DNA of 64,000 bases from Hydrurus foetidus (GCA_900617105.1 UYFQ01000046.1:1-64000); one strand, 5' to 3'; shown: positions 25,355 to 56,607, counted from the stretch's first letter. Numbers and translations are program-made. The notes: a model not told the origin generated them from the sequence alone.

Positions 25355-26023
25355 TTCAATTGAGTCTTCCTCTTAGTTTGAGCTCTGGCGTTTTTCCAAC
25401 ATTTCTTCTGCTGATGAAATGATGAGGTAGATGAATAATGCTCCTTGTGGTTGAGAATATCTCAACTTGAAATCCTATGATTGATAACTTTCGTTTTACT
25501 TCAACCCATTTGCGGTACCATTATAATCTGTGTTGATGAAATCAAATATTGAAATTTTGAGAAACGTAGTTTTCAGGTTCGTCATCGCACGTGAATTTTT
25601 TAAAATGGAATACCGTCAAGTGCCTCTTTAATTGTATTCCGGACCGGAATTCCACAACATATTTACTCAAAATGGATGATATCGATGCAGAACTACACTG
25701 GATTAGATCTCAGCGCAGAAGTGACCAAATCCATCAGCGAGTATCATTTCGTAATCGTGGTGCATTGAGGCTCCCCAAGGTATCAATTTTTTTCAATAAA
25801 GGCCTCAAAATTTATCAAAAGTCGGCTCAACAAAATCGTCGATCTCAAAATGTCTCCGACGTCCAGGTGCAATAACTTTCGAAATATCAGTTGCTTTTAC
25901 ATTCTATGCGCCATTTACTCTTTTCACTGACCTTTATCAACAGGATATCTTCGCTCGTTTCAACGTCGTGATCGGTGTATCCAGTAAAGTGCCTGTAGCT
26001 TTACTGTAGATTACAGCAGTAAA

Positions 26024-28581: not shown

Positions 28582-28687
28582 AAGAACAAATGAATAAATA
28601 AAATAAGTTACGTTAGAACACTCTGTTTAGTTTGTAAATTAGAGAATTTAAATTGCATTAGTTCGGTACACATTGCTCAACTGGTAA

Positions 28688-29229
28688 TCAATTTAGTTTG
28701 GAAGGGTTTAATCCAGAAGCATGAAGGAAATCAAAAAGAGAATCTGTCCATAGATCTGAGTTTACTGTATACACTATGACAAAGAGTTGATAACCTTCGC
28801 ATGTGTGATTTGTGCATGACTCTAATCTACAAGCAAACGTAAAACCCACATCATACATATTGTACTCAGTTTGATTCCGAGTACCGCCATCCATCAGCGG
28901 CGCTAATATCTTCGCATGCATCCTATCTAGATTCCCCACTCTCTCCCCAGGTATGTATGAATTCGGCTCGATACAAGGCTTTTCCGCTGGAGTCATAATA
29001 CAAATGCAATTTGGATCTAAAGAAAAACCAAACAGAAATAAACCGCGTCAACTGTAGTTATGATATCTCATGCACAGCTGTGAGCAGCAGAAGAATATAA
29101 TCATTCGTCACCTTTCAAATTATCTGGATCCCTCTTCAACAATAGCTCAATGTCCCCAGCAAGTTTTATTGTCTTCCTCAATGCGAAAAGACCTTTTCCA
29201 GTTGATCGAAATTCAATCATGGCTCTCAT
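28688..29229 (-). CDS. Stand-alone HIRAN-like domain protein (148 aa; intron 29111-29017) inside transposon A
   Basis: Spliced product MRAMIEFRSTGKGLFALRKTIKLAGDIELLLKRDPDNLK-DPNCICIM...PGERVGNLDRMHAKILAPLMD fits the HIRAN pattern L.REP.N..D.NAI.V...G..IG......A..LAPL.D. Confidence 0.75.
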
Positions 29230-29971
29230 CCTGGATAATTTGAAGTGATAGCTTATCAGAGCAATTCGTTGAAACGCGGTCAATATATTGATTTTTTCAA
29301 GAGTCAAAGAACATGCCATCGAAATCTCTGACGGTATTATGCACTGCAACGTTACCTTTGAAGCTGTTGAAGAGATGCCTTCTATTGGATTGATCTGGAC
29401 TACCGCAGTCTCTATCTTTTGAACGACTTATTGCGCGAGGTCAAAAATTGTCGATCCCAAATTGGCGGCTCGAACACCTTGTCGTCGCAAATTCTCCGAC
29501 CTGAATCTGTCGTCCACAAGGAGATATTCTATTGTATCTGAAGTTGGTCTGTAAATGGATGATGTTGCTCAAGATGAATCGAATTTCCACTTTTTCGTGT
29601 GACACCACTGAAACGGAATACAATTAAAGAGGCACTTGACGGTATACTGACGGAATAACAGATTCTAGTGAATCGGATTATTTTAACTGAAATCGCACCA
29701 AAAAAATTCAGTAGAAAAAAAAAAAAAAAAAAATTTTTTGTTGAAAAAATAATTTTTTTTCTCTCCATGAAAAAGTTGAGAGTGCGTTCGGTATCTTTCG
29801 CTTTTCATTACAGTGGATTGGAAAATACAACGTATTACAAATACCCACTGGATTCATGGGTCCAGTGGATGATGAATTACATTGCTCGCCGAACACATTT
29901 GATCGACATGACTATCGAACAACATCACTACAGCACAATAAGATAATCGACACACTTCGCTGCTGCACAAC

Positions 29972-31138
29972 ATGGATGAGATTGGTATTTGCGGTGTCGA
30001 CACCATCTCTCTCGCAGCTCTTGTTCTTCTGGGAGAAACTGAGCAACGTCGGCAACCAGTTCCGCAACACAACTCAGTGCTGACTGGGAAAATCTATCTA
30101 CAGGAGCTGCTTGAGACAGAAAGCGCAGCACGCTTCAAGAGTGTTACGAGGATGGATAAACCAACATTCCAGATTTTGCTGTTACTGTTGGAGACTCACG
30201 GAGGATTCGTCGATTCGAAGTATGTTTCAGCGGGTGAAAAACTATTGGCATTTATTCTCGTCCTGACAGGCAACTCGAATAGGGAAATCAATGAAAGATG
30301 GCAGCATTCCGGTTCAACAATATCACTGCTAGTGCATGAACTTGCAGATACTTTCAAGAGATGTCAGCAACACTTTTGGTGCCCTGTGAAGAGAGACGAC
30401 CCAACGCAACCTGAAATCGCAGAGAACCCGAAGTTCGGCCCGTATTTCGCGAATTGTATCGGTGCTCTCGACGGCACTCACGTTCCAGCAATCGTCCCAC
30501 CTGCTGAGCAACGACCATTTAGAAATAGGAAGAAGCATTTGTCGCAGAATGTGCTAGCGGTTGCCAACTTCAATCAGACGTACAGTTATGCACTTGCAGG
30601 TTGGGAGGGCTCGGCGCACGATAGCCGAGTATTGAATGACGCGAAATTGAGAGGTCTTCCTCTTTTTCCCGGAAAGTATTATCTGGGAGATGCAGGATAC
30701 GCATTGTCTTGGCATGTATTGACTCCGTACAGAGGAGTGCGCTATCATCTCAAAGAGTGGAGAATAGGCCATGAGGGACCTCAGAATGCACGAGAACTTT
30801 TTAATCTTCGACATTCTTCCCTCAGGAACGTTATCGAGAGAATATTTGGTGTCGCTAAAAAACAATTTCCCATGCTTGTTGCCATGCAATCTTATCCGTT
30901 TGTCTTTCAATGTGACTTAATCTCATGCACATTCATGTTACGCAATTTCATTCGCACTCATCAACTTTATGACGATGATTTTAATGATGTACAGCTATAT
31001 AGCGATGTTCCTGATGATGATGATGTCGAAGAAGTTGAAATTGTTGGTAACGCAAATCAGCTGAATGCATGGAGGAACGGAATTGCTGATGCAATGTGGG
31101 AAGATTATTTAAATCATGTTAATGCAAATCAAGTTTGA
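29972..31138 (+). CDS. PIF/Harbinger (HARBI1-like, DDE_Tnp_4) transposase, 388 aa, uninterrupted
   Basis: Motifs CIGALDGTHVP, AGWEGSAHDSRV, YYLGDAGY, FNLRHSSLRNVIERIFG. Confidence 0.93.
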   Translation: MDEIGICGVDTISLAALVLLGETEQRRQPVPQHNSVLTGKIYLQELLETESAARFKSVTRMDKPTFQILLLLLETHGGFVDSKYVSAGEKLLAFILVLTGNSNREINERWQHSGSTISLLVHELADTFKRCQQHFWCPVKRDDPTQPEIAENPKFGPYFANCIGALDGTHVPAIVPPAEQRPFRNRKKHLSQNVLAVANFNQTYSYALAGWEGSAHDSRVLNDAKLRGLPLFPGKYYLGDAGYALSWHVLTPYRGVRYHLKEWRIGHEGPQNARELFNLRHSSLRNVIERIFGVAKKQFPMLVAMQSYPFVFQCDLISCTFMLRNFIRTHQLYDDDFNDVQLYSDVPDDDDVEEVEIVGNANQLNAWRNGIADAMWEDYLNHVNANQV

Positions 31139-31162
31139 TATTACAACAATGCACTTTTCATT

Positions 31163-32077
31163 TTACAACTCAAAGTTGGTCAAATCTAAACAACCTTTAA
31201 TGCTCTCGATGATTTCATCATCATCCTGAGACAGAAACATTTCATAGTTGTCTTTGAAGTACTTCTGGTACTTGAGCTTCTGAGAGGGGTTCAGGTTCGC
31301 TGAGTATTTGTTCTTGAAGATGTGAAACGCCTTTGACAAGTCGCTTTCTTTACCGTGCATGTCGATCAACTTTCTCTGATTCGCTACTATTTCTTCTAAA
31401 AACTTGTTCTTGGACTCTTCCGGCTTTTCTTTCCATTTTCTTCCCAGCGCTGGCAGTGGTTTGACGCCTGCAGTGGTTGAAGGGGCCGGCTTATCTTCCT
31501 CAGGCAACCTTGATTGCTTCTTTGATACATCATTAGTAAGGCTACAAAAGGGGTGCTTCTGTCCAGCGAGCGATAGGATTGATTTGCCGCTATCATCTTC
31601 AGAGGCCTCGCTCAACTCGATTGCACGCCTTTGAGATGGTGTCACTGGTACTGACGATTGCGCATACTTGCCAGTAGCGCTTTTACCAGTAAAGACGATA
31701 TCCAACTCGTCGTACGATTTCAGCGGCTTGTCACGAAACTGGATGGCTTTTGGGTGGGCTTTGCAGTAAGCATCCCAGACAGAATTAGCTGCTGTGGGTC
31801 CGTTCGTGATGGGGTCTACTCCAAATCCACTGTTGTCGAGCAAGGTGCTGTACATGACATACTGTGACTTGAGTACGCTGTAGTAGCTCTGACATTGTTG
31901 CTTGTTGAACTGTTTCCCTGAGGCTGCATTGAGGTCATCGACGATGTTCTTCCACGCTGCTTTTTTGAAGCCCGTGTCAACGAAGTTGCCTTGCTCTATT
32001 TCTCTCACCATTGCATTGATGAAGTAGCGTCGATTGTCATCGTTCCAATCTGCCTTGACGTTAATCTTCTCTGTCAT
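31163..32077 (-). CDS. Harbinger-associated Myb/SANT-like DNA-binding protein, 304 aa
   Basis: ADWNDD...GFKKAAWKNIVDDLN...KQQCQSYY...SGFG.D......A.NSVWDAY...HPKA..FR.KP...YDEL pattern. Confidence 0.88.
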   Translation of the reverse strand: MTEKINVKADWNDDNRRYFINAMVREIEQGNFVDTGFKKAAWKNIVDDLNAASGKQFNKQQCQSYYSVLKSQYVMYSTLLDNSGFGVDPITNGPTAANSVWDAYCKAHPKAIQFRDKPLKSYDELDIVFTGKSATGKYAQSSVPVTPSQRRAIELSEASEDDSGKSILSLAGQKHPFCSLTNDVSKKQSRLPEEDKPAPSTTAGVKPLPALGRKWKEKPEESKNKFLEEIVANQRKLIDMHGKESDLSKAFHIFKNKYSANLNPSQKLKYQKYFKDNYEMFLSQDDDEIIESIKGCLDLTNFEL

Positions 32078-32319
32078 CGTCGAATGTTAGTATGTCCAAG
32101 ATGTTGTATTGTAATGTGATGCAACACAGCTACGAAGCTACTTGGCGATTTGATGAGATCTACAAATCCAGCGAAAAATAGTTACTTCGGTAAGTTACTT
32201 CAAATCTCCAGGAGTTCTCAAACTTTTCTTGGGAAGTTATCTTCAGAATCTGAGTAACCTATTCAAATATCCTTAGAAAAGATTACTTCGTTGCAACCCT
32301 CATTCCTTCAACCCTCACT

Positions 32320-35300
32320 ATGTCCAACACTGTATTCGGCGTCGAAACATCTTTTGGGATTCATGTTCCAGACAGTCCAGCATCAACTGATTTAGGATCT
32401 GATGTTGACATCTCTACAGAGGAGGTTATTAATGATCCTTCTAACTCTGTAAAGAAGAAAGGTCGTGGAAAAGCCCTCAAATGGGAAGAACATTTAGTGG
32501 AGGATAAGACTGGGTTTATACTTTACCAGTCTCTTGGTGATGTAGTGCATGATGCAGCAATATCGGACTATTCAAAAGTCAGCTCAGTAGACTTGCAGTC
32601 TAAGTTTAAATGCAAATTCACTGGCTGCTCTTTTATGCGAAGATACGAGATGGATTCTTCCATTGGACAATACATTTTGTATTTCCATGGAGTTCACGAT
32701 CATACCGATCTTACGGCTCTCACCCCAGAAGCCCATATTGGACTTACTGGGGAGCAGAAATTATTAGTTCACGAGGCCATTGACCAAGAGAAAACGTCTT
32801 CGAGGAAGATACTGTCTTTTTTTCGTCTGAAGAGAGCTGCATCTTTACAAGATGGTGCTCTTCGTTTCCCAGATGATCCCGATATTGTGAAGTTGAATAA
32901 TTACATTCAAGCACATAAAAGGAAAAACTCGTCTATCTATAATCCATCGCCAAACGATTTGAAGCTTTGGTGTTGTCTCATGGGCCTATTGTTCGCGATT
33001 TGAGTAATGACGAAATCAATTCGAATATTCCGTTTGTTCTTATTTTATTATTATTAGACCGTGTATTATTCTAGATATCATGTGATACTTCCTATGCGTG
33101 ACCCATATTTAATACACGATATTTATTTTATAAGGACACATCGACATCTTTTAAGCCCCGATTCATAGCCGTCATATCAAGCTATAGATTGCTATATCAT
33201 AGCGTTGATAAAAATTCTCCTCTTGTCGATAACCGTAATTGCCTTCAAGCCGATGGTACTCATAAGACTAATATTCACGGATTCCCGGTGTGAATAGTAG
33301 GTGAGGGTAATGTGACTTACAAACTAAAATAAATTCTCGGGACCATTTTTACAGAAATTGATACTATCTACAATTAACATAAATGTTAGTCAGCATATTT
33401 ATCATCCTAAATAAATCTATACCTGAAAGAAATTAATTTTCTATTTTTACAGGTTCCTTTGATGTTGCACGAGTATTTCACACACTGGCTGTCGCTATAA
33501 GCACTCATGAAGACGCCGCGATGTTTGAATTTATCGGTAAGTAATTAATTTTTCATTAATTATATTGCAAGAAACGAAAAAATTCGGTTGATTCACTTAC
33601 TCATAATTTTATGTGCGATGTACCCCTTTTATATTATAATTTTGATTTTTACCGTTTTTTAATTCTGTTTTTTTTCAATCATAAGATATCAAAACTCGCA
33701 ATACCTTAAATTGATTTTAATATTACCCAGGAAAGTGTCTTGAGAAATACATTCCTCATTTCAAGCCCAAAAAACTTATGAGTGATGCTGCAGCGGCAAT
33801 ATTCAATGGTTTATCCAAAGTATTCCCCGACATGCTTCCCGGAAAATGCTTCTTTCACATGATGAAAAGCATGAGATAACGTCCCTATTCTGACGAAAAA
33901 TCGAAGAACATTTTCTGAAAAGATTTAAAATCTCTATCGAAGTCGCATAGTCAGAACCACTTCGACGCATCCTTCGCACTATTTTTAACAAAATACAGAA
34001 TCAATCAAAACGTGTCAATCATAAATGCTTTACAATATGTTGAAAAATTTTGGTTAACACCGCCCAATATAGGATGGCACTCTGGTTTACTTCCTGGTAC
34101 TGTGACGACTAATAATGGTGTTGAAGTTATAAATCGAATTTTCAAGAAAGATTTAAGAGGTACTTTTTGTATTCTGTATTTTGTACAGCACCAGGGACGA
34201 CCTTATCGATTTCTGTTTTTGAGGAATCCCTGTTTACATTTATTATGTAATTTTTATCATTAAAATTTATCTAGAAAATTGATATTCACATAAAAAAACA
34301 TTAACATTACGTTACATTTTAGGTGATTTAGTAAGCGGGACTGAGTGCTTAGATTACATTTCAAAATTCGTCAACAACGAATCAATAACAAGTTCTGAAA
34401 ATAACGCGAATTTTAAGAAATATTCGTATATTCCGAAAGTTAATATAAAGGTGTGGTCGACTGCCTCGTCTTTAGCGAGCAACGAGCGCATTAAGACTTT
34501 GAAGCCAACGTTAGTAAGTAAACAATACATTATGTTTACGCCAGAAAAAATAATGAACGATCTCAAATCCTTAAAAATAATAACTAACAGCAACACAAAT
34601 AGCTTCATCAGTTGGATGTCAAGACAATATTATAGTGAATGCGTGCGTATAGTAAGCCCTCTTCCGTCTGATTTGGTCAGTTTTAGATCAGGAAGTTACA
34701 GTTGCACTTGTCGTACCTATATGGATGAGTATGACTGCGAACATGCATTGGCCATTTCCATCATTAGAAATAGGGTTGCCACTTCCATCAGCATGGATTT
34801 GCCAATGGGACAGAGAAAGGGCCCTGGTCGTCCTAAAAAAGCTGTTAAAGGAGCACTAAATTATCAAAACGTCGAAGTCACCAAACTCGATGTAATTGAA
34901 GCGGAAGTTACGGACCAATTGAAAGAGTCTTCCACCGTTCGAAGTACTGAAGGTAATAGTGATTTTTATTATTAAGGCTTCGTACACTAAAATTGAATAA
35001 ATTTTTTTTTAATTTTTTTGTGTAGGAATCATCAACGTGTCTGAGAGTGACACAAATGAAGGAATATTCCGATTAACAAAAGAATTTGTTTGGGCTAATC
35101 AATCTTGTTCCTACGATAGCTTATTGACGTCCTTACTGTTTATATACAGCACTGACAATGATTCGAATAAAAAACTTTTAGAATCAACAGTCCCCGGTTT
35201 ATCAGTTGCCTTCGACGATCTACTAGATGATAAAATAAATCCGGGGGTGATAAAGGAAAATATATTAAACGAGTATTTTTTGCAGTCGGATCAAATCTGA

Positions 35301-35880
35301 CACGTGGAGTTCACGAATCTGTAGACAAAATTTTCGCTCATTTAATGGGATTTTGTACTATACAGGTACAGGGTGATCAATATTTCCAAACACAATACGA
35401 TCTTAAAAGGACATGCACCAATCCAGAATGCATTAGTGAAAAGGATGTAATAGTTATTTCAGCAATGAAAAATTATATTCTTTTCTTTGAAAATATGGAG
35501 TGTACAGATAGCATAAACTCAAAGATAGATGAAGTACTGCATAGCAAAGTGCGTAATTACAGATGCGAGGAATGCGCAGTGCATTTAAAAGAAGAGTATT
35601 TTAGAACAAGCACCCCTCATATTCTAACAGTCCATCTTAGTCAACATGTTTTCGATTATCCAATTGATGAGGAAGTGGAGGTTGGTGGTCAGCAGTATGA
35701 ACTCAAGAGTGTAATATATTTTGGTGAGGCGCATTTCATTTGCCGATTCTATCATAATAAAACTGTTTAAGAATATGATGGAAATGCCAGAAATGGTCTC
35801 ATCCATGAAATAAATGAATTTAATCCATTCAGATTCATCATAAAAGACGCAAACAAAAATGCGCGAAGAGGCATGACAAT
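32320..35880 (+). pseudogene. Multi-exon Mutator-like (MULE) transposase with WRKY-like Zn finger, DDE core, SWIM finger, AT-hook and C-terminal USP-like cysteine peptidase domain; disrupted
   Basis: CKFTGC...HDH; QADGTHKTNIHGFP (about 33245-33290); LMSDAA and CFFH (33775-33860); TNNGVE; CTC..YMDEYDCEH; GPGRPKK; NQSCSYDS; YELKSVIYFGEAHF. Stops at 33291 and 35768 plus frameshifts. Confidence 0.8.
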
Positions 35881-36171: not shown

Positions 36172-36952
36172 CGTACTTACACATGTTAGTGCATACTCAT
36201 TTATGCATACGTACACACATGTACTTACACATGTACGTACATAGTCAATTTGTACGTACGTACGTACGCCCGCACGCATGTAGCATAGCGTACACTTGTA
36301 TGGTCACGTACACACGTACGTGCACATGTTGGTACAAATTAGTATATGCATACGTACACACACGTACACACACGTACTTACACATGTATGTACATATCTA
36401 ATATGTACGTATGTACGATCGCCTATAGCGTAGTACATAGATGTATAGGCGTACATACGTAAGTACTCCTGTACTTGCGCATGTACGTTCTTATACATAC
36501 ACATGCATACGTACTCCTATAATATCGCCATATAGCAGTTAGTACTCACGCGTGTACGTTCATATACATATACACGCATACGTACCCCTGTACTATCGCC
36601 ATGTATCAGTTAGTACGAACCCTCTGACCTCACGCAAATGAACGTTCGCCTTTCATGATTCTTCAGTATCGCCAAAACACTTCGTTACTATAAGCATTCA
36701 TGCAACGTTCCTCAAGCACATGCTATGAACAACACATCTCGCTGTGAACTTTGTCTCAAGGTAGTTTCATTGTCATGAACTGTTTCGATAGCTCTTTTGC
36801 GTGGCTATCTGTAAACTCTAATCAGAATTTAATACGTTGTACTTCACAGCTTCGTCTACTCGATAGCTCACTGAATTGAGACAGTAGCCTGCAGCTGCTT
36901 CTCCACCTTCGCTGCGAACGCTAGAAGGTGACATCTTGTATTTAGTCTTACA
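36172..36952 (+). repeat. Copia copy 2 5' LTR, lacking its first 155 bp or so
   Basis: Match to the 3' LTR starts only at CGTACTTAC (equivalent to 43897). Ends in CA, followed by PBS TGGTAGCGA. Confidence 0.88.
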
Positions 36953-44284: not shown

Positions 44285-44716
44285 CCGTCGCCGACCCTAT
44301 GTTTGCGGGGGACTTGAGAGTATACCCGTGACATAGGACTTCTTTTTGTCCGAGGAGTAGGAGATCATACTTATTGGACCTTCTGCACTCCAAGCACAAC
44401 TACAAATTCAAAATTGCTTCCCCTGCAATTCTGAGTGGTGCATTCTGTCACTTGAGTTTTGTTCTCTCATCGTGCAACAGGTTCTATTCGTTGAAGACCA
44501 GATCGCATCGCTGGAGTTTTTACACGGAGCCATCATCAATTTCGACACGGTCCGTAAGCAGCTGAATATTTATTAAGGGATAGCCCAATCTGCAGAACTG
44601 TCAGCTAATCGACCTCAAGATAAATGTATAGAAACAGAATCTGTTTTGTCCGGCAGGCCACGAGGTCTACTTAATTTCAAAATTGACATGTCCTCCAATT
44701 ACCTTGTTTTTTAGTC

Positions 44717-45529
44717 ATGCCGCTGATTGCGACTATCGATTGCACAGCGAGTGGGCTATTCGCGTTGGATAAGAGAATCAAGGTCAAGAAAGGGTCTACT
44801 TGCAGGTTGAAGCGTAACTTCGACAATCTGCACGGTGAGCGTCTTATCAATATAGCCCTCAGGAAGCGAACTTTATTTGATGTCCTCACCAAAAATATTT
44901 TCTGCCAAGTACATGCTTATTTTCTGAATGCTAATTGATGCTGACAATTTACACTAGATAAGGTGCGAGGTGAATCGCTGCCCAAATTTTCTCTATTTCT
45001 CTTACTTATAGTTTCTAGCAGCTTAAGTGCTGCGTCAGTATTCGACGAAGAGTTCCTCAGTATTCCCTGCATAGTCAGAACTGCTGAACACCTAGCACTC
45101 TACGGAGAAATCCCTCACTTCTCAACAACAACTTATCTGCTACCACAGTCATTTGTGCTGTAGACTTACGACCCGTTAATTATTGTGCTCTTACTGATAC
45201 CATGTTTTTTTTGCTGATTATTAGATACGAACTGTATCCAAGTGCTCGCCCCTGATGATATGGACGGCGACAACAAAGGGTTTTATGACCCTGGTGAGCA
45301 CATAGGAAATCTGCGGAGGGAATGGGCGGCATTGCTTGCTCCCATATTAGATATGCTAATTGAAACTGATACGTTGTACTCTGTATCTTTTGATTGCTGT
45401 TTGTATCATGGAGACACATCGCACGCCAGAAACGGTTACGCATTGAGAATTTTTGTAGTCAGTAGTAATACAACTGAATTCAATCTAAAACTCTCATCCT
45501 TCTTCAGTGACTCTCAATCACAGTACTGA
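44717..45529 (+). CDS. Stand-alone HIRAN-like domain protein (140 aa; intron 44835-45224) inside transposon B
   Basis: Spliced product MPLIATIDCTASGLFALDKRIKVKKGSTCRLKRNFDNLH-DTNCIQVLAP...PGEHIGNLRREWAALLAPILD, homologous to 28688-29229. Confidence 0.75.
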
Positions 45530-45644
45530 TGAATTCTCGTACTCTGCATTTCTGTGATTTGAATGATAAGCACTGTTTTATTCAATCTGAACCGAATTAC
45601 TTGCATGTAATTACTAATTGTTTTTTATAATACATGTTTGTATA

Positions 45645-46022
45645 AGATATATTAGTGAAGAAAAAATGCGAAAAGTAGAGTGCAAGTTGTGCGTTTGGCT
45701 ATCGCTATAACTACTTCTGACATGATGACCGTGTTAGTGGCAGTAAGTACGTGAAAACCGTACGTGCAATATTATCATTTTTTCTTGAAATCAATGTCCC
45801 ATACGTATGTGTAATATATTAGTGAAGAAAAAATGCAAAAAGTAGAGCGCAAGTTGTGTGTTTGGCTATCGCTATAACTACTTCTGACATGATGACCGTG
45901 TTAGTGGCAGTAGGTACGTGAAAACCGTACTTGCAATATTATCATTTTTTCTTGAAATCAATGTCCCATACGTATGTGTAACATATAAGTGAGAAAAAAT
46001 GCGAAAAGTGGAGTGCAATTTG
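45645..46022. repeat. 167-bp tandem repeat, about 2.2 copies, between the 3' ends of the two genes of transposon B
   Basis: ATTAGTGAAGAAAAAATGC.. at 45651 and 45818, partial copy near 45985. Confidence 0.85.
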
Positions 46023-46033
46023 GCGATATTAAA

Positions 46034-48661
46034 TTACAAACTCTCTATAAAATTCATTGCCTCTGTTATCTCATGATCGTATTCTAACATGGCACTATCA
46101 TATTCTAACATAAAATTGATCGTAGGTATTTCTCCATTTGTCTCATCTAACGCAATGTCACTAAAGTCAACACTGTTATGACTGGAGGTTGAAGAAGTCC
46201 CAGTAGGTATAACCTTCATTGTGCCACATAAATTATGTTTTGAGTACGGTTGAAAGATTGGTTGTGACACATCGCTATCATCTAATGGAACACAACCTGT
46301 ACTTATGAATGACCTTTTTACTCCTTCAGCAAATTTCATCTCTTTGAATCCACCAGCTAAAAGATCGAATAGATCTTGAATGCCTTGGAGCATCTTGGGT
46401 TTAGGGGGTTGAAAGACAGGTAACGTACGTTCATGTACATCTTTTGCTGATTCTTCTTCGTACTTTTTTTTAAAAGCCTGGAAACTTTCCACTATTCTAG
46501 CTCCTCTCAAATTTCTTGTGTGTGCTTTCAGAGGCCCATTAACAACCAAATCTAATACTTGTAGAACACCTGTCATATTGGGGGGCAAACAAGCTATTTG
46601 TACACCTAACTCACTGATTACCTCATCAACCATATTTGTTTTGTGACATCCACAATTGTCAAACCATATCATTAACTTTCCTAGCCTTGATTTCAGTGGT
46701 TTTACAACAGTTTCTAACCACATGATCATTCTAACTGTATCGTTCCATGCCTTGAACTGACTAGTTATAACATGACCTGTAACTTTGTTAATAATATAGT
46801 AACATGCATGAGTATTTGTCACACCTTTTATTGTCAACTCTTTTGTCCACTTAATTAGATCCCATTCATCATCTACACCAAATCCTTTATTCTTTTTATG
46901 GAGGTCCTGTATAACCCTCATCCCTGATTGGTCTGGTCTTTCTTCTGAGCTAACTGAGTGTTTAATGATAATGAATAAAGGCACAAACTCGGCATTACCA
47001 CTTACCGCTACAACCGCTGTTATGCCAAGCATCGTATTAGGTATACCAATATTCTGAGCGCGTTGTTGGTCGGGTGGACAGTACATGTATTCCGGGCCTA
47101 TCGCGTAGGTAAACGCTGTTTCATCCATATTTATTGTTGTATCTCTGGTGTGTCCAAAGTCTTTGTACATTGATTGACCGATTTCCATTATCCTCTTTAT
47201 TTCTTCATCTGATGGTACATTTTTATCATCAGTCGTTATCTTTCTTCTACGCATGTTTGCCCGCGTCAAAAATTTTCGAACCCATTTTGAACTGAACTCA
47301 AGAGCTTGTATTTTATCATCATTAATCTACCTATCACCCGCTTGAACAGTCTTTGCAGCTTGTTCGATTATTGCATAAGTGTAAACGACACTGACCAGGA
47401 TACGTGGAACGTTGGTGAGGACAACCTCAACCTATCAAGATAGACACACGTACGTACGTTCGATATCTTAGTATTTGAGTTAGCAAAACGTGTATATACA
47501 TTACTGTGTAGTAAGATGCAGATCACTCACAAAAATGATAACAGATTATTTGATGTAATAAAATGATGTATCACGGTGAATTTTGATGATACTTACATTT
47601 TTTTGCTCAAATTCACATATCATTAAATTACCCCAGACATCAGCCTCGAATTCCACAGAGATCTTTCTCCCACATGTTTTTTTCATCACATCCCTTTTGA
47701 CTACCCACCTCACTATTGTTTCCATAACAAGTTCAGAATATCTTGCATGTTTAATTAAAATTTCCTTGGTGTGAGTAGCTGTCACAATATTATTAGCTCT
47801 GTATTTTTCACCCTCTAACTCACTGCGAGCTGTAATTATAGCATCAAATAATGAGATAACCAGCTGTATCCCATGCAATTTGAACCTTATATTTTTATTA
47901 GGAAACTTTCCCAGCATTTGGTGGACAGCGGAATGGTTTATTATTTGTGATATTGTCACAGTATCATCAACGTTATCGTCGTCGAATATCTTTCGCCGTA
48001 CAGCTTCTAAAGCACCAGCGCTTCGCGATGTAGATTCTTTTATTGCAGCATTGATGTATATTGTAGGTGACTCATTAGCAGCGCAAATACTATTTGACAC
48101 GAACTCATATACTTCTTTTGCGTATCTTCCCATCTGCCTGTCACCGATTTCTTCACCTTTCTTTCTCCGTTTGAACGATTCAGACTTTGCATTATTGACG
48201 TCCAGCTGATTTAACCATAATAAACCGTTAATCTCACTGATTGACAAATACTTTGAATCTGCTGTGCATGTTTTAATTAGCAATGTGTTCGCAGTACTTG
48301 TAATTTCTGTAACTAAGTAGTCACGTGACTTATCACCATTCAAATTATTTGTCCCGAACTTTATATCTGTTCCCCTGCTCCTTGCCGCCAAGTCCATGAA
48401 AGCTTCCGTTCTCATTTCTCCCTTAGAGCTAATACTAATGACGCTGCAACCAAATTCCTCGATGGTCTTCTTGAAGATGCTCAGACCTTGATGCAAGGCC
48501 AACGCATCGAATCTGAAGTTGTGGTCTTCGTAGTGATCCATCATCCGCAGCTCAGCGCTAAGAGAACCGATCGACGACTGGTGATTTACAGGCTTACTAG
48601 GACGACAAACGAGCGCTATGGCGACTGAGAAAGCGCACAATTTAACCGATAGAGATACCAT
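46034..48661 (-). pseudogene. DD35D pogo-type transposase of element B (intron 47596-47432) with one in-frame TAG at 47329-47327
   Basis: Homologous over its length to 26024-28581 (MDETAFTYAIGP, WFDNCGCH, LPPNMTGVLQVLD), with an equivalent intron position. The stop aligns with Tyr in element A. Confidence 0.85.
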
Positions 48662-48796
48662 CTGCAGTAATCGGATAAAATAGTTCAAAATTCACATTCA
48701 GAAGCGATGCAGATATGCAGGCCTGCCGGACAACATCGATTATCTAACTAGATGTACTAACAAACGCATAAATCATCGCTAGAGGTTGCTCGATCC

Positions 48797-49012
48797 TGTG
48801 GTCTCACTAGGACTCTGGGCTGGAACGGAGGGCTGCTGGAACGCGGGCGAAGGAAAGGGGGTGATGGGGCTGGTGCTATGGATAGCAAAGTGGTTAGCTT
48901 ACAGATAAACACAGCAGGTATCATGGCAATGAATCGTGTGGATCGGATCGTCCTCGATCCGATCCGAACGTACGCCTGTACCCGTACCGCCCGTACGGGT
49001 GTACGGGTCACA
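48797..49012 (-). repeat. Gypsy A 3' LTR (216 bp)
   Basis: Identical to 56100-56315. Confidence 0.96.
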
Positions 49013-49326
49013 GTGCCCCTCTCTATCTAAAGGGGTGTACTAACTAACAAAATTCATCATCAAAATACTAACTATGAATAGATCCTAACTATTGAAAAAC
49101 TATTTCAGACTGAAACCGGAAGTTTCGTACTGAATAAACCTCCATAAAACCCGTTGGAATTCAATGTAGGAGGAATCTTTATGATTTAGTGAATCAAAAT
49201 GTTGTGTTTTGGTTTTGGTTTTGTTTTTGTTTTTGTTTTGGTTTTGGTCTTTTTTTTTTTTTTATTTTATTTTATTTTATTTTATTTTATTTTATTTTAT
49301 TATTATTTTTTTTTATATGATATCGG

Positions 49327-52300
49327 TTATCGGTAGTTCGCGATGAATTCGCGTGGTATTAAATGTTTAAGGTTCTTTTTTATCAAAAACTCATATACTT
49401 TTTGCGACTTGCGCATATGTGTCCACGGTTCCCAGGTGTTGTGTTCCTGAGTATAGTTGAGCCATTTCACATGAAATGTGAGTGTTTTGTAAGCTCGAAT
49501 ATTACCTTTCATTTCTAAAATATCTTCGATGAAGAATTCTAGGTAGTCCCTACGAGCTATATCGGTTGGGTCTACATGAGTTGGGTCGAATTGGAAAGGT
49601 TTTAATTGTGTCATGTGGTACACTTTTTCTTTATGTGTTATTAGATCGAGTAAAGTATACTCTGCGAAGTTGTGACTGACAACTCGCATCGGACCACGCC
49701 ACAGTGTGTGCATGCGTGTTTCCGGTGTTGTTCGCTGTTGCACAAGTACATATGTATCGACTCCAAATTGTGTGATGTTGGGTGATTGTTGTGCATTGTG
49801 GATGTCGTCTGATTCTTTGAGTAAACGTGCAGTGATTTGGATAAGTTCATCCTGCAACGTCAACATTGTATCTGTTGATTTCGATAGTGAATGGGATTCC
49901 AAATCGATTTCGTCTCGCGGGAGTAGGATATTGGCATCGAGGTCGATAGCGTTGCCATAGATGAGTTGTGCAGGTGATACTTTCATACGGTCGTTTACAG
50001 TTGAATTTAGTATTCTTTGTACGAATGGTAGTATTTCCGCGTAATTTTCCGTTGTTGCGCGTTCGTACGCGTATGCGGTGATGTGACGATTTATTTCTTT
50101 GTTGATACGTTCGACGATAGCGTTTTCTTCTGAACAGTATGGTAATATTTTGTTGTGGGTTGTACCAACAATTTTCACGAACTCATCGATAATGTGAGCG
50201 ACGAAGTGTGGGCCATTATCTGATCGAAGTATAGATGGTGTGCCGTATCGGCCCACGTGTTCTATGAGTGCTTTGCACGCTGCTTTAGCTGTTGCATCAG
50301 GTGTAGCATAGAGTTCGACAAATCTTGAAAATGTGTCGATCATAACAAGGATGTATCCTTTATCTGGGAATGGTCCGATGAAGTCAATATTAAGACATTC
50401 CATTGGTTTGTATGTTGATGTCGTGTACCTATATGCATTGATGGGATATTTCATAGCCGACATCTTTTGGCAACAAGGACAATTTTTTATGAATGTTTTT
50501 ACTGCGTCACGCATTCCCAACCATATGTTATTTGATTTTTTTAAGTTACGCAGAGTGCGTTGAACACCACCGTGTCCGACTGTAGTGTTATGACACTTTG
50601 CAATTAAGTTATATTGCTCTGTCGTCATCGGTTTGTGTGTCAGAATTGCAGCTATTATTCCTGATTTAGGTAGCATTCTGTTTTTACATAGGCGAGACAT
50701 TGCATCAGCAATTTCGTTTTGTTTCCCAGGGATATATCCTATCGTATATTCTAATTCTTGCAGGGCCATACGCCATCTGCTGACCATTTCGTTCTTGTCT
50801 TTTTCAAGGAACGTAAGATTTTTGTGGTCTGTTAGAATAGTGAATTTACGATCTCGTAGCAGTGCGTCGAGATAGGTACAGCAATAATATAGCGCGAAGG
50901 CTTCTTTTTGTATTACTGACCATTTCAGTTGAGTCTTGGTAAGAGACTTGCTTACAAGAGCGACGAGTTGTTTTTCCCCGTCGACTTCTTGATACAAATA
51001 GCCGCCTATACCGTAATCCGAAGCATCGGTCATTAGGGTTATGGGCGCTGTATCGTGTATAAAATATAGTAAAGGACTCTGTGCAATTAGATCTTTGATC
51101 TTTTGGAAAGAATTTGCAGCGTCATCTGTCCAGATAAGCAATGATTGCTTTTTCGCTGCGTGATCGATCATTTTATGCAGTGGTGCAACCACGTTAGAGT
51201 GATTTGGTACATGATCCCGAAAATAATTGGTGAGTCCGAGAAACGATCTTAGTTCGGTCGTCTTTCTTGGCATAGGAAAGTCGGTCACACCTCTTATTTT
51301 TTTGGAACTCATAGTTATACCATCTTTAGATATTTGTTTACCAACATATTCAACTAATTTTACATTTAGTTTAAGCTTTGCAGCTTTTAGTGATATGTTT
51401 TTTTCTTCGAGACGTTGAAACAATATTTCTAAACGTTCGCAGAACTCCTCAAATCCATTACCATAAACGATTATATCGTCGAGGTATACTTCACAAATGT
51501 GATATATTAGTCCCAGAAGGACTATTGTGGCCATCATTTCTTGGAAATATGAGGGAGCTCTTTTGGGTCCGAATGGTAGTCGGGTAAAGTGGTGAATACC
51601 CATAAAGGTGACGAACGCGGTGTACACGCGTGTACTCAGAGTCAGTGGGGCTTGGTGATAACCTGCAGTGAGGTCGATTACACCGAATGTGTCTGCCTTT
51701 TGTGAACCTAATCTCGCTAACATTTGTCTAATATTAGGAATTGGCCAGCTTGCTGACTCTGTTGCATCGTTGAGGTGACGGTAGTCAATACAGAATCGGT
51801 ATGAACCGTCTGGCTTAGACGCAAGTGTAACTTGTGAGTAGTATGATGCCTCTGATTTGACTATTATACCCTGTTCTAGCATAGTATCAACTTGTTTACG
51901 GATTTCAATTTGTTTCCGTATTGACGTTGGTCGGGGTGCTACACGATTCCTGAATACTTTCCATTCTGGATCCCGTACGGGTAGTCCAAACGGTGGAATA
52001 CGTGCAGGCTCCGGTCCGAGTTTGTTGTTGAAAAGCTTAATGTGTTCGACACAGATTGCTCTTATTTTTGCTATTTGGTCAGGGGTACCATCGATGTGTA
52101 TTAAATCGATGAGGTACATTTTATCCTCTGTTGGATTGTCTTGGAAAGGAGCGAAGGTATCCTTCGACTTGTAGTCAATCTCTTCGGGTCCGAAGGGTTG
52201 AACCTCCGGGAGTTCTTCACGCTCCCGGAGTAGAGCAGCAACTAGACCACGCGTTTGAGCTGGTGCCTTGGATGAGGGAGTTGGAGTAGCTAATTCCGGA

Positions 52301-53664
52301 CTCCTGTCGGTTGTTAAACCTAAATCACTGTGTCGGGGAGGTGACAACAAAACTGCTGCCTCGACCGTAGAGTGCACAGTGAACTCATCTAAAACAAGTT
52401 GAGCCGCTGCCGCAGCTGAACCTGTGGGACACCCGCATGATGCAGTGCATGTCTTGCTTGTACAAGCACCTCGAGCCACCAGGTCGTCTTGCCATCGACT
52501 GTCTGCGTCTGAGGGTTTTATCCCCTCCTGGCTAGTTATAACCAGAGGTATGTTGTGTGTGTTTTTATTTTGTTGCGTTGTGTCAGTGTAGGTGACGACA
52601 TGTTCAGGTTCTGCATATAGCAGCTGTACTGGAATAGTTGTAAGAACGTCCGTTCTCGACTTTTGTAATTGTTTTGACGTCGGATGTGGAAGAAGTTCTG
52701 TTCCGATTTGATCTACATTTTGGAAGAATTCTGGAAGAATTTTTACCAGGTTGAGATCTTTGATTGTTTTTAATCCGAGGATTAAATCGACTTTGGAGTC
52801 TTCCGCAATTCGGACAGGAAGAGCGAAAGTGTATTTGAGAAAATCTTTTTTAAATGATACAACAATATCAAGCACATGTGTAGATTCAATACATTGATTA
52901 TTTAGACCGGAACACATCCATAAGGGAGTGTCCGTTGTGCGCAAGTGGGGTTCGCCTTGCAGGCCCCGAAGGACTCTACGGTTGACTACGTCCCCAACTT
53001 GGCATCCGGTGTCGAGTTGTGCGAGAGCGGCCAAGTCGTTACTTGGGCTCGTATTTGTTGGAGGAGGAGGATTTTCCGGAGGTGTTGTTGTCGTCCCGGC
53101 GGTTGTCTTTGTCTTTCGCCGAGTCGCGCGACTCTTCCTTGCGGGAGTTGTCACGGTCGCGATCGTTAGCGCGGTGGTTGGGACGGTAACCGGGGATCGG
53201 ATCTGTGGTAGAGATATTGTTACTTGTAAGTAATCGTCTATGTTTTCAGGTAATATCGCTGATAGTAGTTGTGTCATGTTTGGAATTTTCTGACTGTCGT
53301 CAGAATGCAATGTATGCGCGTCAGTCAATGACAACTTACTTTTGCCTTTGTATCCGAACTCTTGGCCGGTTTTGTTGTTGACGTTTCTGCGGCTACGGTT
53401 TGCGTCACGATCGGTGTTGCGGTCGTTGGCGTTGTTGTTGTTGCGTTCGTTATCGCGATCGTTGTTGGTACGATCCGACTTCGCATTGTTGTTGTTGTCG
53501 TTGTTGTTTTTGTTATTGTTGCGTTTGTTTTTGTTTTTGTTGTTTTGGGGTTGTTTCTCTGGACCCTTGTCGGTGGTGTCTCCTTCCGTGGGATAGATGT
53601 ATGTGGACGCTCCATGATTGATGGTAGTTTGCGTCATTACCCCGTTGAGGTAGACGTTTGGCAC
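49327..53664 (-). CDS. pol: Gypsy A pol (Asn-rich segment, protease, RT, RNase H, integrase, chromodomain)
   Basis: LDTG; DLTAGYHQ and YLDD; TDASDYGIG; H..GH..CPCCQ, IDFIG, SDNG, VER; C-terminal FHVKWLNY..EHNTWEP. Confidence 0.95.
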   Translation of the reverse strand: MPNVYLNGVMTQTTINHGASTYIYPTEGDTTDKGPEKQPQNNKNKNKRNNNKNNNDNNNNAKSDRTNNDRDNERNNNNANDRNTDRDANRSRRNVNNKTGQEFGYKGKSKLSLTDAHTLHSDDSQKIPNMTQLLSAILPENIDDYLQVTISLPQIRSPVTVPTTALTIATVTTPARKSRATRRKTKTTAGTTTTPPENPPPPTNTSPSNDLAALAQLDTGCQVGDVVNRRVLRGLQGEPHLRTTDTPLWMCSGLNNQCIESTHVLDIVVSFKKDFLKYTFALPVRIAEDSKVDLILGLKTIKDLNLVKILPEFFQNVDQIGTELLPHPTSKQLQKSRTDVLTTIPVQLLYAEPEHVVTYTDTTQQNKNTHNIPLVITSQEGIKPSDADSRWQDDLVARGACTSKTCTASCGCPTGSAAAAAQLVLDEFTVHSTVEAAVLLSPPRHSDLGLTTDRSPELATPTPSSKAPAQTRGLVAALLREREELPEVQPFGPEEIDYKSKDTFAPFQDNPTEDKMYLIDLIHIDGTPDQIAKIRAICVEHIKLFNNKLGPEPARIPPFGLPVRDPEWKVFRNRVAPRPTSIRKQIEIRKQVDTMLEQGIIVKSEASYYSQVTLASKPDGSYRFCIDYRHLNDATESASWPIPNIRQMLARLGSQKADTFGVIDLTAGYHQAPLTLSTRVYTAFVTFMGIHHFTRLPFGPKRAPSYFQEMMATIVLLGLIYHICEVYLDDIIVYGNGFEEFCERLEILFQRLEEKNISLKAAKLKLNVKLVEYVGKQISKDGITMSSKKIRGVTDFPMPRKTTELRSFLGLTNYFRDHVPNHSNVVAPLHKMIDHAAKKQSLLIWTDDAANSFQKIKDLIAQSPLLYFIHDTAPITLMTDASDYGIGGYLYQEVDGEKQLVALVSKSLTKTQLKWSVIQKEAFALYYCCTYLDALLRDRKFTILTDHKNLTFLEKDKNEMVSRWRMALQELEYTIGYIPGKQNEIADAMSRLCKNRMLPKSGIIAAILTHKPMTTEQYNLIAKCHNTTVGHGGVQRTLRNLKKSNNIWLGMRDAVKTFIKNCPCCQKMSAMKYPINAYRYTTSTYKPMECLNIDFIGPFPDKGYILVMIDTFSRFVELYATPDATAKAACKALIEHVGRYGTPSILRSDNGPHFVAHIIDEFVKIVGTTHNKILPYCSEENAIVERINKEINRHITAYAYERATTENYAEILPFVQRILNSTVNDRMKVSPAQLIYGNAIDLDANILLPRDEIDLESHSLSKSTDTMLTLQDELIQITARLLKESDDIHNAQQSPNITQFGVDTYVLVQQRTTPETRMHTLWRGPMRVVSHNFAEYTLLDLITHKEKVYHMTQLKPFQFDPTHVDPTDIARRDYLEFFIEDILEMKGNIRAYKTLTFHVKWLNYTQEHNTWEPWTHMRKSQKVYEFLIKKNLKHLIPREFIANYR

Positions 53665-55544
53665 GAAGTGAGGGTGGCCGATTCGGCGGAAATCGGCTGA
53701 CTCCGGTGACTGTGACCGGTGTGTGTTGTCACAGCCGGTGACTGTGACCGGCTGACTCCGGTGTGTGTGTTGTTACAGTGTGTGTTCATGAAGAGTGTAC
53801 GCGTGTAACGATTGTGGCCGACGACCCCACACGTGTGGCATGTGTTGGTGGAGCGACTGAGGCCGTTGTGTTCGTAGTCCTGTGAACGTGAGAACATGCT
53901 TTTGTATTGGGACTGCGGCACGTACTCGTTGGGTGGTGTGTCGGCCTGTTCCCTTAGGGTGAGTTTTGTTTTGAAGTGGTATAACAATCCACCCATGTTT
54001 TGTGCGTCCTCAACTGTTCGGCGGGATTTCTGTAAACAGATGTTGAGGCGCTGAATCATGTCGGGGATGTTATCCTTCTTTTTCCCTTTGATGTATTTTT
54101 TGGTTTGGGCCATGAAGTTGTCGGTGAATTTGTTGTTGATGGGTAGCTTCTTGTAGAAGATTTTACACATGTCATCATGTGTTGTTGAGTCAATCAGAGA
54201 ATATTCGCTGTAGTGTCCCAAGATGATGTCTCGGAACTGCGCGATTGAGGCGTCCTCGAGGGATTCGTCTTGCCAGCAAAATTCGAATTGGAAATTTTTT
54301 AAAGATAAATCCAATTCGAATGTTGTCAGCGTACGTTTGTTATCGTAGTAGATTTTTTTAAGATCTTCTGCGATTTCCTGAAGGGTGAGTGTCCCCGAGG
54401 GGAGTTCGGGCCAGGCTTTACACTCAGCTCTGGTGTAACCGGTTTCCTTCATGTGTTTGACTAACCGATCTTGGATCGATAGTCTCGCCTCTTTCTCAAT
54501 GACTTCGTCCCATTTGGATTTAAATCCCGGGCGATATGCCTGTTGGTAGAAAAGGCGTGCTGCCTTATCCATTCCACCAAACAGGGCTTTTCGGTCCAAC
54601 ATGAAAACCTCTCTCATATTAATGAGTGAGGTGGATATTTCTCGGGCTTCCTTTTGGGGGTCGCGGGACTCATAGACGAGATCTGTGTCATCTTGTTTGC
54701 GTTTTCGAATAGGTTTTTCAGCTGTCGGTTTAGACGCGACTGATGTTACCTTTGCTTTTGCTGATGATGTAGATGAGGATGATGATGATTTGTCTTGTTT
54801 GGTAGCCCTTGCGGGCTTCTTCTTCGCCAGAGGCTTGATAGCCAATGGTTTAGATTTTTTAGACTTGACGACAGGGAGTTCGACAGCGTCTGAGTTTGAC
54901 TTGTCGTCGTCGTTATCGTCTTCCTCGTTGTCGTCGTTGTCTTCATCATCATCCTCGCCGTTGTCGTCGGCGTCGTCATTGGTGACGTCGTCGTCGGCGT
55001 CGTCAGTGTCGCTGTTGTCGTCATCGTCCTCGTCCTCCATCATCGTCGTCGTCGTCGTCCTCCTCAGACGAGGAGTTGTCGTTCTTTTCCTCCTTCTCCT
55101 CTTGCGACTGTTTAACGTCTTGGTTGTTGTTGTCGTCATCAAGAGGAGTTGGTGGGGTGACTCGACTGACTGATAGGGGCGTTGGTTTGTGTCGACGGAT
55201 GCGACGAGGTCCCTCATTTCTTCCTCGTCAGCGCCAACTTTGTCTGCCCATTCTTGCAGCTTAGCAATGCGTTCGCGTTCTGCGATGCGCATTTTATTTG
55301 CTTCGCGCTTGGTTATCTTGCCGCGAGCGGCTTCGTCTTGAAGACGTGTTGGGGTATCTCCGACTCGGATGGCTTCCTTAGCCAGAGCCGCAGTGGATTT
55401 TTCGACATTGCGGAGGAGTTCCCGCTCCGCTGCTGCGTGTTTTTGCCTCGCAGTTTGCGGAAGCTGGCGCTGGTCGGATGGGTTTGAACCCTCAGAGATA
55501 GCATCGCTAGAGCTCCGTTTGTTGGCATTTTTGCCTTTGGCCAT
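53637..55544 (-). CDS. gag: Gypsy A gag (acidic and Lys-rich N-terminal half, degenerate Zn knuckle); local frame disturbances
   Basis: Long ORF between the 5' LTR and pol. Likely start MAKGKNANK at 55544. CHTCGVVGH near the end. Confidence 0.75.
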   Translation of the reverse strand: MAKGKNANKRSSSDAISEGSNPSDQRQLPQTARQKHAAAERELLRNVEKSTAALAKEAIRVGDTPTRLQDEAARGKITKREANKMRIAERERIAKLQEWADKVGADEEEMRDLVASVDTNQRPYQSVESPHQLLLMTTTTTKTLNSRKRRRRKRTTTPRLRRTTTTTMMEDEDDDDNSDTDDADDDVTNDDADDNGEDDDEDNDDNEEDDNDDDKSNSDAVELPVVKSKKSKPLAIKPLAKKKPARATKQDKSSSSSSTSSAKAKVTSVASKPTAEKPIRKRKQDDTDLVYESRDPQKEAREISTSLINMREVFMLDRKALFGGMDKAARLFYQQAYRPGFKSKWDEVIEKEARLSIQDRLVKHMKETGYTRAECKAWPELPSGTLTLQEIAEDLKKIYYDNKRTLTTFELDLSLKNFQFEFCWQDESLEDASIAQFRDIILGHYSEYSLIDSTTHDDMCKIFYKKLPINNKFTDNFMAQTKKYIKGKKKDNIPDMIQRLNICLQKSRRTVEDAQNMGGLLYHFKTKLTLREQADTPPNEYVPQSQYKSMFSRSQDYEHNGLSRSTNTCHTCGVVGHNRYTRTLFMNTHCNNTHTGVSRSQSPAVTTHTGHSHRSQPISAESATLTSCQTSTSTG

Positions 55545-56099
55545 CTTGAAAAGTCGTCGGCAGTTGGATCGATGGCGCTTCCTGTCTTGGTCAGCAACGG
55601 AACTCGGACGCTCTGCTAAATGATCAGTAGGATGTGCTCCTTCGAAAGAGCTGTTGGTGGTATGTTGGCGGCTGTAAAAAGTGAAGATTAGATTAAGATG
55701 CTTTCCCCCCGATTTCGGGAGAAAATTGATGGAAAGTTGAATAGGACGGTGGAGCTCGCAGGACACGAAGTTGGGCGCGACGTCTGTAGGCTTTCGTTTA
55801 CGAACGAATTTGATGTTTTCACTTGCTTACAAGTTACTCGCTTGCGTTGTCCTTCAAGTTTTGAATGGAGCAACGATTTAAGTCGGAAAAAGTCGTCGAG
55901 ACGAAATTTTTACTGGAAGCGTTTCAGAGGCTGTCGCCTTGACAGAGCCTTTGTAGTGTGTTTTTATGATGTTTTCACTTATAAAAGTTACTCGCTTGGT
56001 GCGGCACGCCTTTGAAAAGGACGCTGCCGACTTTTTTTTTTGGATGTTTTTGGAAGCTGGTCTCGTAGAGAGATCCTAGCTGATTCCAAATACCGGTAT

Positions 56100-56315
56100 T
56101 GTGGTCTCACTAGGACTCTGGGCTGGAACGGAGGGCTGCTGGAACGCGGGCGAAGGAAAGGGGGTGATGGGGCTGGTGCTATGGATAGCAAAGTGGTTAG
56201 CTTACAGATAAACACAGCAGGTATCATGGCAATGAATCGTGTGGATCGGATCGTCCTCGATCCGATCCGAACGTACGCCTGTACCCGTACCGCCCGTACG
56301 GGTGTACGGGTCACA
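56100..56315 (-). repeat. Gypsy A 5' LTR (216 bp)
   Basis: Identical to 48797-49012; followed on the plus strand by TSD ATCC. Confidence 0.96.
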
Positions 56316-56607
56316 ATCCAAACGATTTCTCATTATTGAGTCCCAAACATGGTTGTGTCAAAAAGTGGTCGATGTCGCGGCATCCCGATTTTTTCGATCA
56401 AATTTCACCTTTCGAATTTTTTGACAGAGGACGGCAGAGAACTTGAATGGACTCGTTGGAAACACTGGTTGCTTTGCAAGAAGATGGAGAGTTGACTGAT
56501 ATTGTGATCGATGAATGGCTACGGTTCGATGTTTTCATGGTGACTAAATATTGGACGTAAAAGTGTCCTAAATCACAGAAACTCCGCAAACATAGGGTCG
56601 GCGACGG

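Follow-up and report, generated by a model that had tools for sequence, protein, structure and literature searches.

The window, that is, the whole 64-kb stretch of DNA analysed, harbours a DD35D pogo-type transposon (element B, 44285–56607, unstranded) in which the transposase is accompanied by a second, convergently oriented gene. Comparison of the element ends revealed perfectly matching terminal inverted repeats (TIRs) of 24 bp, one on the side of the second gene (44285–44308, plus strand) and the other on the 5' side of the transposase (56584–56607, minus strand), with TA on both sides. The sequence-only reading had ended the element at 48796; however, this position is the split point of a Gypsy (chromodomain) LTR retrotransposon (48797–56315, minus strand), and the true end of element B is that of the second TIR at 56607. 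The Gypsy element is a young insertion with identical 216-bp LTRs (48797–49012 and 56100–56315) and a 4-bp target duplication (ATCC); it entered about 135 nt 5' of the point where the transposase is predicted to start, and without it element B is about 4.8 kb in length. The host site of element B is a TA in a Copia LTR, and the sister LTR of this pair (95% alike) presents the empty site with a single TA (36520–36545); element B is therefore a recent insertion. Between 36162 and 57000 the nesting reaches three levels, with pogo B inside a Copia LTR and Gypsy inside B. Introns and LTR elements mark the host as a eukaryote, probably a microbial one given that relatives occur in metagenome assemblies. 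Element B is now a disabled copy, owing to the Gypsy insert and to an in-frame TAG in the transposase (47329–47327, a position occupied by Trp in relatives), the latter being the stop already reported by the sequence-only reading. An unstranded tandem duplication with a period of about 167 bp (45647–46022, 94% identical) lies between the two stop codons, and Rfam gave 0 matches across the 64-kb window.

Element A, an unstranded element of 4030 bp with 29-bp TIRs in the same window (25613–29642), served for comparison. Its transposase occupies 26024–28581 on the plus strand and its HIRAN-like gene 29229–28688 on the minus strand, and its reading frames and TIRs look intact. As had been claimed, the TIRs of A and B, each perfect and TA-flanked, have only CCGTC in common, and the same convergent two-exon gene was found again beside the transposase in both elements. 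The B transposase is predicted from two minus-strand exons, an exon 1 of about 355 aa (47597–48661, boundaries inferred) and an exon 2 bearing the DDE_1 domain and the DD35D triad (46034–47431, 5' boundary inferred). The DDE_1 domain (PF03184) scored 35.4 bits against a cut-off of 22, and the catalytic spacing is 35 residues in both elements. Between A and B the C-terminal exons are 47–51% identical and the N-terminal exons 25%; the latter (47597–48661 in B, 26024–27133 in A) encode 355–370 aa in both transposases, with the intron at about the same place. The N-terminal exons matched no significant Pfam family, and HTH_Tnp_Tc5, Brk and psq gave no match on separate exons, the region in question spanning the predicted intron. 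Transposase relatives numbered 257 among 4271 candidates, while 0 of 77 pattern matches in viral contigs was such a relative.

By these features, elements A and B fit the pogo superfamily as described in the available part of PMC7386202. With the pogo DD35D families Passer and Fot/Fot-like of that account, element B has in common the DDE_1 transposase, DD35D, the TA duplication, TIRs shorter than 40 bp and a length inside 1.2–5.2 kb. By contrast, element B adds a second, convergent, intron-containing gene that is not a transposase, whereas the pogo section of PMC7386202, as far as it is available, gives ORFs for the transposase only; a further difference from these families is that a DNA-binding-domain family was not detected in the long N-terminal exon of B by the separate-exon scan. 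Elsewhere in the window, a Harbinger-type pair (29942–32086), consisting of a DDE_Tnp_4 transposase and a convergent Myb/SANT gene, directly adjoins element A, and 32254–35770 holds pieces of what is probably a Mutator-like element (weak SWIM match) together with an unexplained ORF at 35234–35770. Large repeat proteins, rich in Cys and with linkers of Pro/Thr/Ser, are encoded at 12128–13714, with Ephrin_rec_like repeats, and at 16925–25103, with repeat units of 408 and 840 bp.

The second gene of element B lies on the plus strand, where an exon 1 of 39 codons plus a G (44717–44834), which aligns with the N-terminal HIRAN motif, is followed by a predicted phase-1 GT..AG intron of 390 nt (44835–45224) and by an exon 2 that runs to a TGA (45225–45529), giving a predicted spliced product of 140 aa. 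The architecture put forward by the sequence-only reading was reproduced in each detail: exon 1 is 118 nt in both elements and aligns without gaps (16 of 39 residues identical), the GT..AG introns differ in length (390 nt in B and 95 nt in A, 29111–29017), the phase-1 junction completes an Asp codon (G+AT), the ATG lies 432 nt (B) or 413 nt (A) from the element end, and both predicted spliced frames are open (140 aa in B, 148 aa in A). The two proteins have 49 identities, and their local alignment score of 181 compares with 27.7 ± 4.6 (maximum 60) in 2000 shuffles. Both the splice of this gene and its expression are predictions from sequence. The acceptor at 45224 yields a HIRAN match of 13.4 bits, about 9 bits ahead of the 18 other AG acceptors (4.7 bits or less), and the motif R-x3-N-x-[YH]-D is encoded partly by each exon, lending independent support to the predicted splice. 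Use of the acceptor at 44957 as the main form (123-nt intron, 107-aa product) was rejected because the HIRAN match is lost (3.9 versus 13.4 bits). The region 44950–45010 of the B intron does contain a second branch-point-like sequence with this AG, followed by about 45 nt that seem conserved; by eye, the N-termini of P0137 and P0195, from two related families, resemble the reading of this stretch, and the site could serve as an alternative acceptor, represent a micro-exon or act as a cis-element. None of the relative proteins fetched is a spliced full-length product.

Profile and model comparisons identify the second gene as HIRAN-related, with a predicted product that is a stand-alone HIRAN-family protein. 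A family profile in which the exons had been joined in silico matched a profile of 29 bacterial HIRANs over residues 22–84 (hhalign probability 97%, E 8.7e-11), and the match spans the exon junction, while 20 column-shuffled control profiles reached a HIRAN probability of at most 0.26%. With Pfam PF08797 (cut-off 24.7 bits), exon 2 of B alone scored 14.8 bits and exon 2 of A gave no match; 10 of 14 exon-2 relatives matched below the cut-off, and P0460, a family member that lacks the loop insertion, scored 31.3 bits. HLTF was the best match in a PDB sequence search (E 0.037), and PDB searches started from individual intron read-through proteins returned nothing relevant. Structural comparison relied on two models (pLDDT 54 and 51, the second model having 51) of P0222, a database relative that reads through its intron, in place of the B protein. 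The first, low-confidence model placed HIRAN only at rank 17 (Z 6.0), and its ferredoxin-like matches formed no clear family. With the second model, all 12 Foldseek matches listed down to rank 13 were HIRAN (E 0.009–0.09), and the top three VIA matches were HLTF (Z 8.1, 117 residues aligned, rmsd 3.3), Rad5 (Z 8.0) and lp_0118 (Z 7.5), the next one having a Z of 5.3. This low-confidence model would thus have the HIRAN fold, a six-stranded barrel with two helices. In the Atlas, HIRAN came up weakly at rank 13 (score 0.75), and a viral fold library gave no match at E 0.001 or better. The profile match, the structural match and the score of P0460 above the Pfam cut-off together bear out the earlier designation "HIRAN-like".

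Like the known members of PF08797 (HLTF, Rad5 and bacterial or phage stand-alone proteins such as lp_0118), the transposon family has the motifs R-x3-N-x-[YH]-D-x2-[AC]-I and G-[YHN], and the order of six strands and two helices appears in the model of the relative, for which HIRANs are the best structural matches. Unlike HLTF and Rad5, the transposon protein has neither a helicase nor a RING partner, and it differs from known HIRANs in a 12-residue loop insertion, in an extra Cys/Asp/His motif and in that the version in B is encoded by a eukaryotic transposon.

Among 754 candidates, 56 were exon-2 relatives, and a search at 50% identity found 90 related clusters among 1.84 billion proteins, all stand-alone and at most 210 aa in length. 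Exon 1 has an identical length in 10 sequences; six database proteins (two of them near-identical) read through introns of 25–43 codons after exactly 39 residues plus a G, and in 3 of 10 further proteins tested exon 1 was found in a shifted frame (scores 81–84, shuffled maxima 43–48). Within the clade of A and B, all four elements that could be read as DNA (A, B, L033 and L034) carry the HIRAN-like gene. In L033 and L034, on small contigs of one genome bin, it is convergent, exon 1 again has 39 codons, and the phase-1 introns measure 137 and 111 nt, respectively. L034 additionally has an end with CCGTC, some 410 nt away from the ATG, and its exon 1 is interrupted by a stop. In the genome bin G001, 2 of 2 matches adjoin a transposase. 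L033, L034 and L035 are intron-containing eukaryotic transposons in records whose titles name bacterial genome bins, probably through bin contamination. P0464 is a single ORF with a transposase stretch and a HIRAN-like C-terminus in the same orientation, an inversion or misassembly and a further sign of linkage. P0472 is an uninterrupted 143-aa full-length homologue (hhalign 97%, residues 2–140) and a candidate for the donor lineage; of 6 pattern matches for P0472 in viral contigs, 0 was a relative, and phage records gave no match.

The gene does not occur in every relative. Of 35 transposase loci fetched, 28 have sequence past the transposase, and 11 of these show a TA-CCGTC end, with 0.81 expected by chance; one of the 11 is L034, and the other ten, all more distant relatives, gave no match to the HIRAN-like gene, although in nine of them the space available is smaller than the 955 bp needed by element A. 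These ten non-carriers amount to about eight independent lineages, with both TIRs visible only in L003 and L013. Weaker end motifs added two more loci, and 21 of the 35 loci are uninformative on the presence of the gene. L035 (751–2039) and L026 (1084–1992) have 0.9–1.3 kb between transposase and TIR, with no recognisable gene there. In a quickly built transposase tree with 63 rows, one change suffices to separate carriers (four known by DNA, nine by same-length contigs) from 12 non-carriers, and 0 of 500 shuffles gave so low a value; the branch between them has an SH-aLRT of only 64 and includes several long rows. Because ten distant TA-CCGTC relatives lack it, the gene was most likely gained once and is dispensable for pogo in general. 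One gain below the wider CCGTC group would be the simplest reading of this distribution, the alternative being an older gain of the HIRAN-like gene followed by loss.

We then asked of the protein data how far the two genes descend together. A HIRAN-like family row and a transposase row were paired when they came from same-length contigs of the same source (161 family and 145 transposase rows, contigs under 1250 bp left out). Exact same-length matches numbered 22, whereas 200 shifted controls averaged 2.5 and never exceeded 8, which puts the chance share of the 22 at about 2–3. After ambiguous matches and one short transposase had been dropped, 15 pairs defined by same-length contigs alone and 4 pairs from DNA entered the trees. 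Over these 19 pairs the Mantel rho was 0.82 (p 0.0001), a value inflated by close kin. Congruence of the gene and transposase trees had been named beforehand as a check on ancestry, and 18 of the 19 pairs agree, with starred branches read by eye; the lone conflict, P0342/P0057, could have been paired by chance. In each tree the deepest split separates A from B (100/99 and 100/100). Co-descent of the HIRAN-like gene with the transposase is thus supported by a pairing that is partly indirect.

The dN/dS comparison recommended at the same time gave a direction, pS exceeding pN in 6 of 6 pairs, and no reliable ratio, since dS is saturated and only the direction can be trusted. Among the four DNA copies of the HIRAN-like gene, pS is 0.67–0.80 and pN 0.41–0.55; dS is infinite in three of six pairs, and the finite dN/dS values are about 0.25, 0.28 and 0.49. 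The identities of A and B at the three codon positions of this gene are 0.46, 0.54 and 0.29, and the transposase pN is 0.29–0.40. These values point to purifying selection on the HIRAN-like gene that would be somewhat weaker than on the transposase. The shared architecture, the agreeing trees and a protein kept despite saturated synonymous sites indicate an inherited, selected part of the element rather than a one-off capture. What had been claimed as a selected, ancestral component accordingly stands for the A/B lineage (4 of 4 elements, trees, pS above pN), and it does not extend beyond this sub-lineage, where ten relatives lack the gene. Passive carriage of a gene captured from a host or a microbe, or capture on several separate occasions, could account for the distant relatives without the gene, for the uninterrupted P0472 and for the broken copy in L034; by contrast, it does not sit well with a position, orientation and intron that are the same in both deep halves of the tree, with congruent trees and protein conservation over saturated synonymous sites, or with the two G001 matches beside transposases. 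Passive cargo is therefore already largely refuted, and we regard it as very improbable.

The residues of the end-binding pocket bear on what the protein may do. According to the accessible parts of PMC5773155 and PMC4666394, the HIRAN domain of HLTF grips two unpaired 3' bases and the 3'-OH via Y72, Y93 and D94, the two Tyr pinching the two bases and D94 recognising the 3'-OH (PMC5773155), and the R71E/Y72A/Y93A mutant, as reported in the available text of PMC6511057, disrupts DNA binding, for which R71, Y72 and Y93 are needed. With HLTF numbering counted from the alignment, the Asp that matches D94 follows the exon junction in 10 of 10 sequences, the Asn before it is also kept in 10 of 10, and G13, F15, R33 and N37 are retained in all ten exon-1 sequences. 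At the Y93 site, seven of the ten have His, and one each has Phe, Lys (A) and Ile (P0437); in the 29 bacterial HIRANs this site is Tyr in 15, His in 8 and Phe in 3. Taken at face value in a weakly aligned part, the R71 site is Phe and the Y72 site Ala, Val or Asp; R71 and Y72 of HLTF thus appear not to be kept in the transposon proteins, and the invariant Phe beside these sites might act as a substitute.

The family also has residues of its own, namely an extra conserved Cys in D-x-N-C (35 of 36 sequences) and a C-x(4-6)-[D/C]-x2-H-x3-G-[YFC] motif (46 of 57). These could bind metal, and together with the apparent lack of R71 and Y72 they would suit a changed job on the HIRAN fold, in which the protein, binding metal or protein instead of DNA ends, would regulate the transposase or host silencing. 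However, Arg, Asn and Asp never vary in the end-binding loop and a CxxHxxC motif is absent from 57 + 83 sequences, and we consider such a regulator unlikely. It is likewise doubtful that the protein is a decoy, a free HIRAN whose competition for 3' ends with the helicase Rad5/HLTF would keep the host from dismantling the transposase-DNA complex and from repairing the donor in a way that loses the element. All 90 related clusters being short and stand-alone would agree with a decoy, and HLTF strips Cas9 from post-cleavage complexes through HIRAN (available part of PMC11237066) and restricts HIV-1 through HIRAN (available part of PMC6511057), which implies that a host HIRAN is able to act on the ends of mobile DNA; by contrast, the altered R71 and Y72 positions would make for a poor competitor, and the literature matches listed, from searches on other questions, include no account of HLTF acting on DNA transposons. 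Because Arg, Asn and Asp are kept and His is usual at the Y93 site, we prefer an end-binding helper over these rivals, even with R71/Y72 apparently lost.

Pogo and other Tc1/mariner elements are one-gene transposons whose cut ends are left to host repair. Excision by Tc1/mariner elements, as described outside the family of B, leaves short 3' overhangs on the element and the donor (PMC7827188, available sections). In the reading that we prefer, element B is a disabled copy of a two-gene pogo-type transposon: the HIRAN gene was likely gained once by a pogo-type element and inherited with the transposase thereafter, and its product likely aids transposition by holding the short 3' ends left by the transposase, the 3'-OH end being bound through an Asn-x-His-Asp loop. 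The benefit to the element could be, for example, that excised ends or the donor break are shielded and steered to host repair. Such a helper would be optional, because relatives without the HIRAN-like gene exist. From the sequences compared here we give this end-binding helper, with a single gain and subsequent inheritance, about an even chance. For the broader proposition, that the lineage recruited the HIRAN end-binding domain either as a transposition cofactor or as a Rad5/HLTF decoy and kept it across dozens of families, the balance tips slightly in favour.

Two-gene DNA transposons are known from PIF/Harbinger, where the transposase is joined by a Myb/SANT helper, a convergent DNA-binding partner as in B; this is another superfamily than that of B, and its helper binds element sequences whereas HIRAN binds ends. 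The TBE/Tec elements of ciliates, as described in the accessible text of PMC7325037, are likewise Tc1/mariner-type and carry additional conserved ORFs, of which Tec has one on the opposite strand; unlike B, they are DD34E with three ORFs and zinc-finger or recombinase cargo, and are neither HIRAN-bearing nor pogo. None of the literature matches listed joins HIRAN with pogo or DNA transposons, although subscription journals, Repbase or supplements may hold such a paper. New here are the co-descent, the conserved intron and the bounded distribution of a pogo-borne HIRAN-like gene. The function of stand-alone HIRAN in phages is stated as unclear in the available part of PMC7785012. If our reading is true, the gene would represent a class of transposon helper found in no paper among those matches and would offer a handle on the role of stand-alone HIRAN, and element A, with its seemingly intact frames and TIRs, makes a comparison with and without the gene simple. 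A transposon that encodes its own end-binding protein would, if so, reveal selective pressure at the step at which cut ends are handled.
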